Virus record (IMG/VR): IMGVR_UViG_3300027387_000003
Location: 1 to 64,000 of that record
From: a virus
Direction: 5' to 3' (one strand)
DNA: 64,000 nucleotides
A program made the position numbers and the translations under genes. The notes beneath the pieces are model-generated. The model searched no databases and had not been told where the DNA came from. It saw nothing but the letters and a program-made list of their open reading frames with translations. This document shows, piece after piece, positions 26,465-31,900 of the stretch. Numbering within the stretch: the first letter of the stretch is position 1; each line of letters begins with the position of its first letter.

Positions 26465-27967
26465 ATGGCATTTCAACGCCCAGGGGTATACGTCGAAGAG
26501 ACACTAAACCCTATTCAACCAGTTGTTGGAGCTAACTCAGACTCTGTTGCTGCCTTTATTGGTGCAGCTGATAGAGGTCCAGTTGGTGTTCCAACTCTAG
26601 TAACATCTTGGAGCCAGTATGTTGCAGCATTTGGTTCTTGGAACTCAGTAGCAAGCAACGACTTGCCACTTGGTGTCTATATGTATTTCTCAAACGGTGG
26701 AAACCAAGCGTACATTGTACGTGCAGCAAACGCTGCAGTTTTAGCAACACGTTCATTAAATGACCGTGCTGTAAGCCCGTCAGCAACATTAACAATTGCA
26801 GCTAACAGCCCAGGTGCATGGGGAAATAACCTAAACGTTAGTATTGTTAACTCTATTACTACAGGTTATTTTGATTTAATTGTGTACGCTGGTGGAACAA
26901 CAGACTCTAACGTTGTTGAGCGTTTTACAGACCTTAGCATGACACTTTCTGATAACCGTTACGCAATTACATCTGTAAACGCTTCCTCACAGTATGTAAG
27001 ACTAACTGACCTTAACTCAGGTAACACAGGAGCTACACGTAACCCAGCAGTAGTAACCAACCAAGCACTAGCATCAGGTTCAAATGGAAATGCAATTGCT
27101 GGGTCTGACTACTCAACTGCAGCAGCTACCTTAGATACCGTTCTACAATCTTTGGTACTTAACGCTCCAGGAGTAACTGCAGCAGCTACTGTAAATATTT
27201 TGATTAACTATGCGGCTAGCCGTGAAGATGTGTTTGTAGTAATCGATGGTCAAGATACCACCCCAGCTACACAGCTAGCGCTTGCTGCTACCTATACACC
27301 TTCTTCACTTGCAGCTGTTTACTACCCAGCATTAGTAATTGCAGACCCAACAGTCACTATTGGCTCAGCAGCTGGTTTAACAAAAACTGTTGGTGCTGGA
27401 GCTGCTGTAGCTGGATTAATTGCTGCAACTGATTCAGTACGTGGAGTTTTCAAAGCTCCTGCTGGTTTGCAGGCTCGTCTTGCTGGCGTTGTTTCTGCTC
27501 GTCAGCTTACAAATGCAAACCTTGACGCTCTTAACTCAGCTGCTGCTCCAGTAAATGCAATTAAGTTTGTACCTGGTAACGGCTATGTAGTTATGGGCGC
27601 ACGTACTCTTAAGGCTGGTTACGTGGATAAGTACGTACCAGTACGTCGCACACTTATCTACCTACGTAAGTCTCTTACAGACCTAACACAATTTGCAATC
27701 TTTGAGCCAAATGACGAAGCTCTATGGCGTCGAATTGATGCAACTCTTGAAGGGTTCTTAACAGCATTTTGGGCAGAAGGCGGCCTTCGTGGCGCAACTC
27801 CTGACTCAGCGTTCTTCATTAAAATCGATGGGGAAAACAATCCTCAGTATTTGATTGACAATGGAGAAGTGCATATTGAAGTTGGTGTTGCTTTGCAGCG
27901 TCCAGCGGAATTCATTGTAATTAAAATTGGTCAGTTTGACGGTGGAACCACCGTTACTGTGGCGTAA
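26465..27967 (+). CDS. contractile tail sheath protein
   Basis: 'PGVYVEE', 'YFSNGG', 'GVFKAPAG', 'GARTL', 'YVPVRR', 'FEPND', 'PAEFI' motifs. Confidence 0.95.
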   Translation: MAFQRPGVYVEETLNPIQPVVGANSDSVAAFIGAADRGPVGVPTLVTSWSQYVAAFGSWNSVASNDLPLGVYMYFSNGGNQAYIVRAANAAVLATRSLNDRAVSPSATLTIAANSPGAWGNNLNVSIVNSITTGYFDLIVYAGGTTDSNVVERFTDLSMTLSDNRYAITSVNASSQYVRLTDLNSGNTGATRNPAVVTNQALASGSNGNAIAGSDYSTAAATLDTVLQSLVLNAPGVTAAATVNILINYAASREDVFVVIDGQDTTPATQLALAATYTPSSLAAVYYPALVIADPTVTIGSAAGLTKTVGAGAAVAGLIAATDSVRGVFKAPAGLQARLAGVVSARQLTNANLDALNSAAAPVNAIKFVPGNGYVVMGARTLKAGYVDKYVPVRRTLIYLRKSLTDLTQFAIFEPNDEALWRRIDATLEGFLTAFWAEGGLRGATPDSAFFIKIDGENNPQYLIDNGEVHIEVGVALQRPAEFIVIKIGQFDGGTTVTVA

Positions 27968-27981
27968 AGGAGACCCAATAA

Positions 27982-28689
27982 ATGCCAAATCAAGCTAGTA
28001 TCATAAATCGCTTCTCTACATTAGCGTCTGACCCACTTCGTTCGTTTAGGTTTTACGCGGACTTTGTGCCACATAAGGGACAAGATGTATTTGATAAGCG
28101 AATCCTTAATCAAAACAGTGCAAAGCTTCCTACCACAGGTAAGTCTGAAGGTTGGATTGGTGGCTTCAGCCAGATTTCTGGTCTAAGCATTAATACCCAA
28201 TCTATCCAGTATCGTGAAGGCGGCTACAACACCACTGTTCATCAGATTCCTGGTATGACCACATTCACACCTATCACTTTCCAGCGTGGAGTTATCTACG
28301 GTAACGACCAAGCTCAAACATGGATGCGCGGTCTTTTTGGCGCAGTGTCAGGAGAAGGTCTTCGTACCGCTACTAACGCAAAGAGCTTCCGTGTAGATAT
28401 TAATATCTATGTAATGGACCACCTAAGCGGTCCAGGTGCAAGCGATAAGAACGTTGAAAAGATGGTCTTTAAAGTTCACAACGCTTGGATTTCTACACTT
28501 AACTACACAGACCTAAATGCTGCTGACGGAGCGATTCTTTTTGAATCTATGTCAGTTGTACACGAAGGTTTGTCAGTTTCATATACACAAGGTGGAATTG
28601 GAACAACGGGTTCAAGTACAGGTTCTAGCGGTAGCAGCGGCGGTAGCAGCGGTGGCGGCAGTGGTCGTCCTTCTTACCGACCAGTATAA
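27982..28689 (+). CDS. tail tube protein (T4 gp19-like)
   Basis: 'DPLRSFRF', 'GFSQISGL', 'YREGG', 'ITFQRG'; follows sheath. Confidence 0.9.
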   Translation: MPNQASIINRFSTLASDPLRSFRFYADFVPHKGQDVFDKRILNQNSAKLPTTGKSEGWIGGFSQISGLSINTQSIQYREGGYNTTVHQIPGMTTFTPITFQRGVIYGNDQAQTWMRGLFGAVSGEGLRTATNAKSFRVDINIYVMDHLSGPGASDKNVEKMVFKVHNAWISTLNYTDLNAADGAILFESMSVVHEGLSVSYTQGGIGTTGSSTGSSGSSGGSSGGGSGRPSYRPV

Positions 28690-28720: not shown

Positions 28721-29515
28721 ATGGCAGAAATCATTACAGATGCACAGCTAATCGAACAATTTGCAGCTCAGGCAATGGAGGAGCCCGCGGCGGTCATTAA
28801 GACGCGGGCACCTTCAGAGTCAGAAGTAAAACTTCCAGGAGGTCATATTGACCAAAATGGGGAGCTTCACATGACAGCAGAGGTTAGAGAACTTACTGGA
28901 GCGGATGAAGAGGCAGTGGCTAAAGCTGGTTCTTCAGGCAAAGCTCTTAATGTTCTTTTAGCAAGAGGTTTAGTAAAGATTGGACCTAACAAAGCTACTA
29001 ACGATGACTTAGACACATTGCTGTCTGGAGACAGAGATGCAATCCTTCTAGGTGTTCGACGAGTAACTTTTGGTCAAACTACTGAACTAATGGTTCGTTG
29101 TAGCCACTGTTCAGATGAGCACACTACAACCCTAGATTTATCATCTGATGTTCCAACTACTTATTTAAAAGATGCAGTAGAAGATAGAACATGGGATATG
29201 GAAACAAAGTCTGGGGTAGTTACCGTAGCTCTACCTAACGGTATTACACAAAAGCGATTGATGGAGAACTATGACAAGACTCCAGCTGAGCTTAATACCT
29301 TACTACTATCTGGATGCATTGTTTCACTAGACGGATACCCATCAGTAGGTTCAGGAACAGCTTTGTCTTTAGGCATGGCTGACAGAAACAGAATTGTAGA
29401 TGAAATCCTTAAGCGCAACCCAGGCCCTCGCCTTGGGGAGGTGACCAAGGCTTGTAAGGCATGTGGAGAAGAAATCTTCCTACCACTGTCCTTGTTAGAT
29501 TTGTTTCGTCTATAG
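28721..29515 (+). CDS. tail assembly chaperone / baseplate hub assembly protein (gpG or T4 gp26-like)
   Basis: 'VRELTGADEE', 'GDRDAILL', two CxxC pairs; between tube and tape measure. Confidence 0.75.
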   Translation: MAEIITDAQLIEQFAAQAMEEPAAVIKTRAPSESEVKLPGGHIDQNGELHMTAEVRELTGADEEAVAKAGSSGKALNVLLARGLVKIGPNKATNDDLDTLLSGDRDAILLGVRRVTFGQTTELMVRCSHCSDEHTTTLDLSSDVPTTYLKDAVEDRTWDMETKSGVVTVALPNGITQKRLMENYDKTPAELNTLLLSGCIVSLDGYPSVGSGTALSLGMADRNRIVDEILKRNPGPRLGEVTKACKACGEEIFLPLSLLDLFRL

Positions 29516-29660
29516 CGAAGCTGATTACGAAGAACTGTTAGACCAGTTTGAAGTTCTCACAAGAACTTTTACGGGTTGGACACTTTCAGACATACGTGCA
29601 CTATCAGTTAGAGAAAGAGCTAACTGGATGGAGCGCTCTAAGAGAACGGTTAGGAGGTAA
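29505..29660 (+). CDS. +1-frame extension of the tail chaperone (gpT-like), probably made by frameshift
   Basis: FVYSEADYEELLDQFEVLTRTFTGWTLSDIRALSVRERANWMERSKRTVRR*; 'GW....I..L...ER..W' is the gpT-type pattern; no usable ATG/GTG/TTG start. Confidence 0.7.
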   Translation, partial: FVYSEADYEELLDQFEVLTRTFTGWTLSDIRALSVRERANWMERSKRTVRR

Positions 29661-29665
29661 GGCAG

Positions 29666-31900
29666 TTGCTTAATTTACCAAGCGGTAAAGCTGGCTCGGT
29701 TATCTCTGATATTGCATCAGGTATATCCCAGTTAAGACAACAGATGCAGGGTCTTAAACAAGACACTAGCGGATGGGTAAACACCTTAGGCGGAGCCACC
29801 TCTAAATTCGGTTCAACTGCTGGGGGAGCTACTAACCAAGTAGCGCCATACCCAAAATTTAGCGTTGACGCTGACGGTGTTGTTAATTACCAGGGAACAA
29901 CAAGCGGTAATACAGGCCTAGTTTTTCAGCAGAATGCTTTACAACCTTACGTTAATCCAACCTATGCAGCGCCACCACCAACTGGAAGAACACCTTCGGG
30001 TGGCGGGGGTGATTATCGAGCTGCCATGGCTGCGGGAGCACTTGGTGGTATGCAGGCAATGCCTGGTACAAAAGAGTCTGTTGATTATCAGCTTGCTCTT
30101 AGTCGTATGGTTTTTTACCAGCAAGCTCCTAACGCAACTGCTGGTAGTGGAAGTATCTTTAGTCGCCTTGGTATAGGTAAGGGTGACCCAGGAAGAGCTG
30201 GCGCACGTATTGCTGCAGAGCAACTGATGGCTGGTGGAACTGCAACTAATAAATTTGATGCGGTTAATGCTTACGCTACAGCAGCTCAGTACGGTTTGTC
30301 TGGACCTAACATGCAACAGATGATGATGGGCAATGCTGCTATGTCTAACCTTACTCCTGGTATTGGACTTGAAGGTTCCACACGTGCCTACGGAGCTATG
30401 CAGCAAGCGCGTAACGTTAACATGCTTCGCGGTATTGGTATCAAGATTCGTGGTGAAGATGGTTCTATGAAACCTATGCCACAAATCATTGATGAGATTT
30501 GGCGCAAGCTTAACCGTGAAAAAATTGGTGGAGCTGCCCTTAGCGTAGAAGATGTTCGTATCTCTTTACAGCCTGGTAATGCTCTTGCTTCTATGCTTGA
30601 CCAGTACTTTGGCAATGACCCACTACTTCGTAAGCAAGTAGAGGATGGTCTTATCTTTAAAGCTCGTACTGGTGGCGGAGCCATCAAGAGCGGTGCGGAA
30701 GGTAAACGAGCAGCTGAACAAGCTGGTGCTACTACTGCCGCTGTATCATCTTTGTCTAATAGAACTGCAGAAGCATCTAAAACGCTTGGTCAAACAGCTG
30801 ATGCTAACGCTGCTGGGTTTACTCAAGCTAACAATGTTATTAAAACTATAACTGGAATTGTAAATCTTTTTGATAGAATTACTGGAGTACTAAAGCTAAG
30901 CGGGCTCTTTAAAGGATTTGCAGACACTATTGCAAGTGCTGGAAACTTTGCATTTGCTGGCCCAGCTGGAGTTGTCAGTGCTCTTGGAGGATTGTTTAAA
31001 GCCGAGGGTGGACCCGTAGCAGGAAAGTCTCCGTACATTGTAGGTGAGCGTGGACCTGAGCTCTTTGTTCCTAAGACTGACGGAAAGATTGTTCCTAACC
31101 ACGAGCTAGCAAACTACCCGTTCCGTGCTGGTGGCGGTGGCGTAAAAGCTGGGGGATATGGACTAGGGGATAAATCTAGCCCAGAAGATTGGGCTAAAGC
31201 AATGCTAAGAGCTTTGGGTGCCCCAGAAAAACAAGACTCTATTGATGCTCTAAAGACCTGGGCTAGATTTGAGGGTGGACACTTTTCAAACAACGGAAAC
31301 CACGGAGCTAGATTTAATCCATTAAATACAAGTTTGAAACTCCCAGGCTCTGGCCCTATGAGCGAGAAGAATAAACTTGTTCAAAGATATCAAAACTGGG
31401 ACCAAGGTATTGACGCTGCTGTAAAAACTCTTACAGGAAACAGGGCAGATGAACGTGGTTACTCTGCAATTGTTGAAGCACTTCGCAAGGGTGCCGATAA
31501 AGATGCAATCCTTGCTGCAGTAAATAAATCTGCTTGGGTACATGGAGAAGGAAAAAATAGTAACTACAAGTTTGCAGGCTCTAGCTCTAAGTATGATGTT
31601 GACTTTAAACCTGGTAGTAGCTCAACAGTGTTTAATAACGGAAACAGCGAAAGCAGCGGAAGAGTAACTTTGCGCTCTTTGATGGAAAGAGAAAAAGAAA
31701 GTACAAAAACTTTGCTAGCTGATTTAACAAAAAATATGGGAGAGTTCAATAAGAGCTCAAGCGCGTCTACTGGTCACACCTATAACTATGGGGGAGTTCA
31801 AATTAAGATTGATGGAAGTACTAACCCTAACGATACTGCTGCAGCTCTGAAGGCAGCTTTATCAAGTCAAGATACTATTTCAAAGGCGGCTAAATTCTAA
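29666..31900 (+). CDS. tape measure protein with C-terminal lysozyme-like domain
   Basis: Ala/Gly-rich helical; 'AEGGPV....PYIVGERGPELFVP'; 'W.RFEGG...NPLNT' muralytic-type segment; TTG start with AGGAGG. Confidence 0.85.
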   Translation: MLNLPSGKAGSVISDIASGISQLRQQMQGLKQDTSGWVNTLGGATSKFGSTAGGATNQVAPYPKFSVDADGVVNYQGTTSGNTGLVFQQNALQPYVNPTYAAPPPTGRTPSGGGGDYRAAMAAGALGGMQAMPGTKESVDYQLALSRMVFYQQAPNATAGSGSIFSRLGIGKGDPGRAGARIAAEQLMAGGTATNKFDAVNAYATAAQYGLSGPNMQQMMMGNAAMSNLTPGIGLEGSTRAYGAMQQARNVNMLRGIGIKIRGEDGSMKPMPQIIDEIWRKLNREKIGGAALSVEDVRISLQPGNALASMLDQYFGNDPLLRKQVEDGLIFKARTGGGAIKSGAEGKRAAEQAGATTAAVSSLSNRTAEASKTLGQTADANAAGFTQANNVIKTITGIVNLFDRITGVLKLSGLFKGFADTIASAGNFAFAGPAGVVSALGGLFKAEGGPVAGKSPYIVGERGPELFVPKTDGKIVPNHELANYPFRAGGGGVKAGGYGLGDKSSPEDWAKAMLRALGAPEKQDSIDALKTWARFEGGHFSNNGNHGARFNPLNTSLKLPGSGPMSEKNKLVQRYQNWDQGIDAAVKTLTGNRADERGYSAIVEALRKGADKDAILAAVNKSAWVHGEGKNSNYKFAGSSSKYDVDFKPGSSSTVFNNGNSESSGRVTLRSLMEREKESTKTLLADLTKNMGEFNKSSSASTGHTYNYGGVQIKIDGSTNPNDTAAALKAALSSQDTISKAAKF

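Follow-up and report, generated by a model that had tools for sequence, protein, structure and literature searches.

Comparative evidence for a probable +1 ribosomal frameshift at UUU_C in the gene for the tail assembly chaperone of a contractile-tailed phage

How is an open reading frame (ORF) expressed when it overlaps the end of another gene and has almost no start codon of its own? This question is raised by a locus in the first 64 kb of the 80.6-kb IMG/VR virus record IMGVR_UViG_3300027387_000003; this whole stretch of 64,000 nucleotides is called the window below. The putative tail assembly chaperone gene of the window ends with GAT TTG TTT CGT CTA TAG. In the +1 frame, a TAG is present at 29496–29498, after which the frame is open from 29499 to the TAA at 29658–29660, and the sole ATG, GTG or TTG of this second ORF (hereafter, the T ORF) is an ATG located ten codons from its end. 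The remaining frame closes 8 codons past the chaperone stop. A preliminary description of the window had given the end of the chaperone gene, the bounds of the +1 ORF, its near lack of start codons and the 5-nucleotide gap between its TAA and the tape measure gene, and all of these proved to be exact. As the two ORFs are bounded by the +1-frame TAG at 29496–29498 and the frame-0 TAG at 29513–29515, any shift between them is confined to positions 29499–29515. The analysis presented here indicates that a programmed +1 ribosomal frameshift very probably produces a G–T fusion from these two ORFs, and that the most likely shift site is UUU_C.

The related loci were sampled by two scans of IMG/VR, which gave 84 further loci at 59–91% identity; adding the window and two Streptomyces phages resulted in a set of 64 unique sequences. 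The codon-level tests were performed on 62 unique close relatives and the RNA alignment contained 42 sequences. In all 64 unique loci, the +1 frame was open for 46–53 codons past the chaperone stop (71–76 in the Streptomyces phages), and the +2 frame of the same loci closed within 1–38 codons. Altogether, the second frame is maintained at +1 in about 100 related loci, which come from IMG/VR phages, six Streptomyces phages and the genomes of actinobacteria and thus extend from freshwater phages to those of Streptomyces. The 37-codon core of the T domain is under purifying selection in the +1 frame, where the proportions of synonymous (pS) and nonsynonymous (pN) differences were 0.77 and 0.18, giving a pN/pS of 0.24, versus 0.93 and 2.47 when the same DNA was read in the other two frames. 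Since the low ratio is seen in the +1 frame alone, the +1 ORF encodes a protein. Its AlphaFold (AF2) model consists of three helices with a predicted local distance difference test score (pLDDT) of 85, and the invariant residues of the domain include Y7, E15, G23, W24, L26, R35, R37, W40 and R43.

The relatives were also inspected for signals of independent translation and for in-frame fusions. In at least 15 unique relatives, the +1 ORF is entirely devoid of ATG, GTG and TTG codons, while the starts in the remaining ones are scattered and lack a Shine–Dalgarno (SD) sequence. Thus, an independent start codon with its own ribosome-binding site, the arrangement that the preliminary description had set against a frameshift, is conserved nowhere among the relatives. 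A search of 1.84 billion representative proteins with the T-domain profile gave 117 matches and no in-frame fusion with the chaperone; all of the matches were 31–84 residues long, except for two longer repeat proteins that were judged false. A word-index search among longer proteins, which is weak evidence, likewise revealed no in-frame fusion. The absence of in-frame fusions indicates that the two-frame state is maintained, as would be expected if both products are needed.

Within the obligatory shift interval, TTT_C is the sole spot that would allow a P-site tRNA to re-pair in the +1 frame, and it is also the sole in-frame TTTC of the chaperone gene. The codons at this spot are invariant among the 62 close relatives: Leu261 is TTG and Phe262 is TTT in 62 of 62, in contrast to other conserved Leu columns, which use three to six codons, and to Phe117, for which both Phe codons are found. 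Arg263 is always encoded by CGN. The AGR codons, which would remove the C, never occur in this column, though AGA and AGG account for about one third at other Arg columns. No −1 slippery heptamer of the XXXYYYZ type was found to link the ORFs, as all loci have their second ORF in the +1 frame and TTT_C is the only conserved site for re-pairing.

The same four nucleotides were found beyond the close relatives. The chaperone/T arrangement recurs in twelve distant IMG/VR loci (seven distinct sequences), with tails such as TTA TTT CGT, ATG TTT CAG, CTA TTT CGA and TTG TTT CGG; the codon preceding TTT varies in distant loci (TTG, TTA, CTA, ATG, CTG, CTC, ATC and ACG). When prokaryotes were scanned with a single genome for each species, 16 loci were found, 15 of them in Actinobacteria, with hosts belonging to Streptomyces, Kitasatospora, Saccharothrix and Terracoccus and including a Lysinibacter metagenome-assembled genome. 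In 14 of the 16, NNN TTT C is present three or four codons ahead of the stop and the T domain follows in the +1 frame. These 14 loci have a GC content of 61–68%, and their chaperone genes contain only 16 TTT codons, 14 of which are at the slip site, versus 99 TTC codons. The Phe matching the TTC codon was likewise invariant when 29 divergent T ORFs, called from upstream starts in the +1 frame, were aligned; alignments of the divergent T ORFs varied too much to serve for pattern scans.

TTT_C is thus invariant wherever the T ORF is present, with the exception of the Lysinibacter locus (L118). This locus has the T domain in the +1 frame, but CTT CTA TTC GGT TGA replaces TTT_C, and it may slip on CTT_C. 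The locus of Streptomyces sp. AP-93 (L116), which has neither a detectable T domain nor TTT_C, may be a decayed element. The preliminary description had asked whether homologues conserve TTT-CG together with a downstream +1 ORF. TTT and the following C are kept, but the G is not, since CAA, CAG, CCG and CTC follow TTT in addition to CGT, CGC, CGA and CGG. Its central proposal, a +1 shift at TTT-C that fuses the chaperone to the T-like ORF with the junction ...LLDLF-VYSEADY..., has therefore received strong comparative support.

The use of this tetranucleotide was also counted in the 67 plus-strand ORFs of the whole window. TTT was followed by C in 38 of 443 in-frame cases, compared to 69 of 231 for TTC. 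When any following pyrimidine was counted in these ORFs, the figures were 83 of 443 and 141 of 231, respectively. The low frequencies of TTT_C and TTT_Y amount to a strong context bias and are consistent with an avoidance of shift-prone UUU_Y, to which codon-pair bias could contribute.

The comparison suggests the following course of translation. Most ribosomes would stop at the TAG at 29513 and release a protein of 264 residues, the counterpart of lambda gpG. A minority of ribosomes would move one base forward while UUU (29504–29506) is in the P site. The anticodon of tRNA-Phe is GAA in bacteria generally; upon the shift, this tRNA would exchange the G·U wobble pair on UUU for G–C pairing on UUC (29505–29507). 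Decoding would then resume at GUC in the +1 frame and add 50 residues, yielding a predicted G–T fusion (P0123) of 312 residues with the junction ...LLDLF|VYSEADY.... That it is the ribosome, and not another process, that changes the frame, and how efficiently it does so, we infer from the compared sequences. On the model of lambda G/GT, both products would use their common N-terminal part to coat the tape measure protein, tube subunits would be recruited by the small basic three-helix T domain, and the slip frequency would set a fixed low ratio of the fusion. A predicted complex of the tube protein (residues 1–205) with the T domain scored 0.00, which gives no verdict on binding either way.

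The assignment of the 28721–29515 product as a tail assembly chaperone is supported by the position of its gene and by its predicted fold. Judging by the sheath gene, the phage has a contractile tail. The genes are arranged in the order of sheath, tube, chaperone, T ORF and tape measure, and the same order is seen in the Streptomyces phages. With the sheath and tube genes upstream and the tape measure gene downstream, the chaperone gene is at the usual position for a tail assembly chaperone in a contractile-tailed phage. The tape measure start codon is preceded by GGAGGT. The coordinates of these genes and of the elements discussed here are given in Table 1. As a separate observation, the tail tube protein ends in a Gly- and Ser-rich tail (28588–28686) of about 30 residues, which the tube proteins of most relatives (201–234 residues) do not have.

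Table 1. Genes and predicted elements of the tail assembly chaperone locus (window coordinates).
Feature	Position	Strand	Basis or remark
Tail sheath gene	26465..27967	+	phrog_23 tail sheath, E 1e-49; Pfam Phage_sheath_1C
Tail tube gene, T4 gp19 type, directly 5' of the chaperone gene	27982..28689	+	Pfam Phage_T4_gp19, E 1.6e-22; phrog_4542 tail tube
Putative chaperone gene ("G" product), 264 residues, C-terminus ...DLFRL, two CxxC motifs	28721..29515	+	Pfam PF12322
27-nucleotide block conserved at synonymous sites, codons N233–V241	29417..29443	+	62 unique relatives
Predicted 7-bp hairpin in the block	29419-29437	+	RNAalifold, 42 sequences
Tentative long-range helices	29439-42/29499-502, 29448-51/29490-93, 29463-65/29484-86 (span 29439..29502)	+	RNAalifold and pair counts, 42 sequences
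Proposed shift site UUG_UUU_C	29501..29507	+	UUU 29504-29506 would re-pair as UUC 29505-29507
Frame-0 stop TAG, end of the short product	29513..29515	+	Sequence
Predicted +1-frame "T" extension, 50 codons then TAA	29508..29660	+	Translation with TTTC as a single step
Tape measure gene, 744 residues, start TTG 29666	29666..31900	+	Position; weak phrog_10574 and phrog_5062 matches (both tape measure)

The chaperone matched the T4_baseplate family PF12322 (the gp26/gp51 family) with 33.0 bits over residues 93–200, the curated gathering cut-off being 24.5. At least 745 relatives of the protein were found; the best 120 of them are nearly all 261–266 residues long and all carry PF12322. The AF2 model, built from 34 relatives, had a pLDDT of 87.7. 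In an exhaustive structural comparison, its top match was the HK97 tail assembly chaperone 2ob9 (Z 7.4, root-mean-square deviation 3.5, 92 aligned residues), followed by 3fgx (Z 5.8), the B. subtilis prophage protein YqbN 3klu (Z 5.7) and then a match at Z 4.2. Foldseek also picked 2ob9 with a probability of 0.85, but the E-value of 0.45 was non-significant. A chaperone fold is thus moderately supported by the models, and the identity proposed in the preliminary description agrees both with the place of the gene between the tube and tape measure genes and with the HK97 chaperone as the best structural match.

In the predicted structure of the chaperone (P0001), the order of strands and helices is repeated at approximately residues 35–139 and 157–253. 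Each repeat ends in a CxxC motif (C127/C130 and C245/C248), and all four cysteines are invariant. This suggests a tandem duplication in which the two repeats would jointly form one four-Cys metal site. A BLASTP comparison of the two halves against each other gave no significant similarity.

A second stretch of unusual codon conservation lies upstream of the slip site. In the block listed in Table 1, the codons CGC, GGG, GAG and GTG are each used in 62 of 62 close relatives, in contrast to other conserved columns, which use 2–6 codons; GGG and GTG are rare codons in the phage of the window. The invariance of the block at the amino acid level is partly an effect of ascertainment, because the PGPRLGEV peptide served as a search pattern, but that at the codon level is not, and four loci found through other search patterns carry the same block. 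A minus-strand ORF at 29269–29448 might have explained why synonymous sites are constrained, but this was rejected, as codons 183–232 vary normally. The block holds the SD-like GGGGAGGTG, 60 nucleotides 5' of the slip codon.

The variation in the predicted hairpin of the block falls nearly entirely in its loop or bulge or is G·U-compatible, with two unpaired cells in 294. The tentative long-range helices stop 1 nucleotide before G UUU C and show compensatory changes in three pairs. Their covariation was 0.198 versus 0.146 in shuffles, none of 500 of which reached 0.198, and slid controls gave at most 0.057, although related sequences can outscore shuffles without any structure. Some sequences could form an alternative hairpin whose loop contains GGAGGTGA. 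Two loci (L088 and L090) retain part of the block. Refolding duplexes located upstream, and SD–ribosome pairing, stimulate +1 shifting in a bacterial system in vitro, and 5' stimulators of this type have been shown mainly with engineered constructs (PMC6321510). Because of these precedents, it is a reasonable hypothesis, but no more, that the block is a clade-specific stimulator of the shift.

Several points weigh against a programmed shift at UUU_C. The case for it is purely comparative. The genes of the window contain 37 further in-frame UUU_C sites, so efficient shifting cannot be due to the tetranucleotide alone; the shift must either occur at a low level or depend on extra context. No hungry codon is present, since CGT, at 20.6 per 1000, is the commonest Arg codon of the window and TTT is followed by a variable codon; hence, the slow CGU of influenza PA-X, whose UUU-CG signal the preliminary description had cited, does not apply here. 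The site also has no A-site stop codon and no SD-like sequence at the 3-nucleotide spacing of prfB. RNAalifold predicted no conserved structure downstream of the site in the 42 sequences, and the single-sequence fold energies around it were ordinary (z −1.15 upstream and −1.51 downstream). The upstream block is absent in the more distant and the Streptomyces loci, which retain the frameshift arrangement, and therefore it cannot be a general requirement. Finally, the structural Z of 7.4 for the chaperone is middling, and such values can reflect merely a common arrangement.

The T ORF could instead be translated alone from a non-canonical start, such as the ATT at 29499–29501, helped by the SD-like GGGGAGGTG brought close through the RNA fold. 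Internal initiation of this kind has precedents in phage T4, where gene 26 has an internal AUU start and the SD of the downstream gene 25 is split by a hairpin. The conserved SD-like block and the covarying fold end just 5' of the site, and the open +1 frame begins with ATT in the window as well as in 36 of 42 close relatives. However, this codon is ACT in the other 6 of 42, and no start-like codon is conserved there in the distant or Streptomyces loci, from which the upstream block is missing too; the ATT start, which the preliminary description had held against its own proposal, is therefore not maintained. Independent initiation would also leave unexplained why a frame-0 Phe must be TTT followed by C, even at 61–68% GC, and the relatives without any canonical start in the ORF do not favor it. 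We consider this explanation improbable. By comparison, a +1 shift at the stop codon itself (a "shifty stop", CTA_TAG_C, resembling prfB) appears still less probable. The stop is two codons past TTT, slow termination is a known stimulator of +1 shifting, and the last sense codon is CTT or TTT in a few relatives. Yet this codon varies widely (CTA, GTA, TTA, ATA, ATT, CTT, TTC, CTC, TTT, GAC, GAA, CTG, ATG and others), most of its forms cannot re-pair in +1, all three stop codons occur, and the synonymous constraint is on TTG TTT C and not on the last codon. The shift at CTA-TAG-C, named as an alternative in the preliminary description, is for these reasons unlikely.

Transcriptional slippage or a −2 ribosomal shift would lead into this frame as well, and +1 and −2 are indistinguishable from sequence alone. 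Nevertheless, the longest homopolymer at the site is T3, and known cases of transcriptional slippage need longer runs; after a −2 shift, tRNA-Phe would land on UGU or its equivalent, which is variable among the relatives, and would find no pairing there. Such a change of frame has, in our estimate, as slight a chance as the shifty stop. The least credible explanation, with a chance close to nil, is that the +1 ORF is unexpressed and that the overlap arose fortuitously from base composition. At 44% GC, chance can produce one open frame of 53 codons, but this one is conserved in about 100 loci, is under purifying selection in the +1 frame alone, and has a domain whose profile matches solely this kind of locus.

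With the +1 shift at UUU_C as the preferred reading, the locus can be compared with known systems. The frameshift in tail assembly chaperone genes is conserved in long-tailed phages, including gpG/gpGT of lambda, according to Xu, Hendrix and Duda (2004) as cited in PMC5009743. As in lambda, the gene is flanked by those for the tube (major tail) protein and the tape measure, a start-less second ORF overlaps its 3' end, the two products would share an N-terminus, and the arrangement is conserved despite sequence divergence. In contrast to lambda, the second frame is +1 and not −1, without an XXXYYYZ heptamer, and the predicted first product is a T4_baseplate protein of 264 residues with two CxxC motifs rather than a small gpG-like protein. 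Judged by position, two-frame anatomy and conservation, the pair belongs to the G/GT class; its +1 frame and the lack of a −1 heptamer make it a variant within the class of chaperone frameshifts.

As for the slip site, bacterial +1 shifting at UUU has been described for argI (where it is an error, at UUU_Y), YopN-TyeA (a programmed shift, apparently at UUU_Ynn) and FseA (msi172/msi171, programmed, at a UUU codon) (PMC5009743). The present site shares with them UUU followed by a pyrimidine, a likely re-pairing of tRNA-Phe from UUU to UUC and the lack of an A-site stop; it differs in being in a phage tail gene, in being invariant across a large actinophage family and in having an upstream RNA block in one clade. 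Influenza A PA-X (UCC_UUU_CGU) resembles the window in UUU_CGU and the +1 shift, but here the E-site codon is UUG, CUG or others and not UCC, CGU is not rare, and the A-site codon varies. The likeness to prfB (RF2; CUU_UGA with an SD 3 nucleotides upstream) consists in a +1 slip by P-site re-pairing, and the Lysinibacter locus has CTT_C; unlike prfB, the site has its stop two to three codons further on and not in the A site, and its SD-like block is 60 nucleotides upstream.

Two further comparisons concern the chaperones themselves. A +1 frameshift was predicted for the G–T genes of the haloarchaeal myovirus HSTV-2 (PMC5009743). That virus is also contractile-tailed and has a chaperone pair linked by this predicted +1 shift, but its host is archaeal and the sequences are unrelated; the likeness concerns the frame. 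T4 is cited as an exception without G–T frameshifting (PMC5009743). The window chaperone passes the threshold of PF12322, to which T4 gp26 and gp51 belong, although only the CxxC region aligns and the T4 genes are not adjacent to the tube gene; when the chaperone family was compared with gp26 and gp51 using hhalign (probabilities of 8% and 1%, respectively), the CxxC knuckle alone was aligned. A limited literature search, in which the plus sign of "+1" was unsearchable, found no published description of a chaperone family using UUU_C. Predicted +1 shifts in chaperone genes and UUU_Y as a +1-prone sequence are already known, while a chaperone family that would shift on UUU_C is apparently new.

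The closest cultured relatives of the chaperone are six records from five Streptomyces myoviruses (BRock, represented twice, LuckySocke, Alone3, GiJojo and pSt2308), at 36–40% identity. The same layout was seen in the four examined, LuckySocke, BRock, GiJojo and pSt2308 (L001, L002, L101 and L102). Each carries a small downstream ORF in the +1 frame, and the resemblance to the window's +1 ORF reaches back past the annotated starts to the chaperone stop. None of these four annotations contains a joined coding sequence; the T ORF was called from internal starts or, in pSt2308, left unannotated. In the GenBank records of the Streptomyces phages, the chaperone is labelled "hypothetical" or "baseplate protein", and the BRock homologue of the tape measure protein is labelled "endolysin". 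A blastn search of the region against GenBank phages gave no match, the relatives surfacing at the protein level alone.

The pairs found in bacterial genomes (L103–L117) are on large Streptomyces, Kitasatospora, Saccharothrix and Terracoccus contigs and represent prophages or phage-tail-like elements. Since chaperone/T pairs occur on actinobacterial chromosomes, the phage of the window, which has 44% GC and relatives in metagenome-derived IMG/VR contigs, is suggested to infect an actinobacterium. Among the sampled loci, L068 is cut short. L067 (1501–2292) has an in-frame TAA just past the first CxxC, yet its 3' end, TTT_C and T ORF are intact; this early TAA may be a sequencing error, a mark of a pseudogene or a site of read-through.

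A more speculative proposal, which we regard as doubtful, combines two ideas: that the block and its fold act as a natural 5' stimulator of +1 shifting, either as a refolding duplex or as an SD mimic, and that T4 gp26 and gp51 are diverged tail assembly chaperones of T4. The latter could be so because the PF12322 proteins described here have a chaperone-like predicted fold and the G–T arrangement. If true, the 5' stimulator would account for the programming of a single UUU_C out of 38.

The chaperone frameshift is among the most conserved recoding events of phages, but −1 heptamers are what annotation tools and the majority of annotators search for. The family described here, with its probable +1 slip at UUU_C, comprises metagenomic phages in their hundreds, Streptomyces myoviruses in culture, and elements within the genomes of Streptomyces, Kitasatospora, Saccharothrix and Terracoccus. 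For its annotation, a simple rule can be used: NNN TTT C precedes the stop by two to four codons, and a +1 ORF bearing the GW...RER..W motif comes next. The cultured Streptomyces phages are open to direct proteomic and genetic tests of the predicted fusion. The finding would also tie the Pfam T4_baseplate family to a chaperone role. Moreover, as the GC-rich hosts show TTT almost solely at the slip site, the family may serve as a natural test bed for +1 frameshifting in bacteria.

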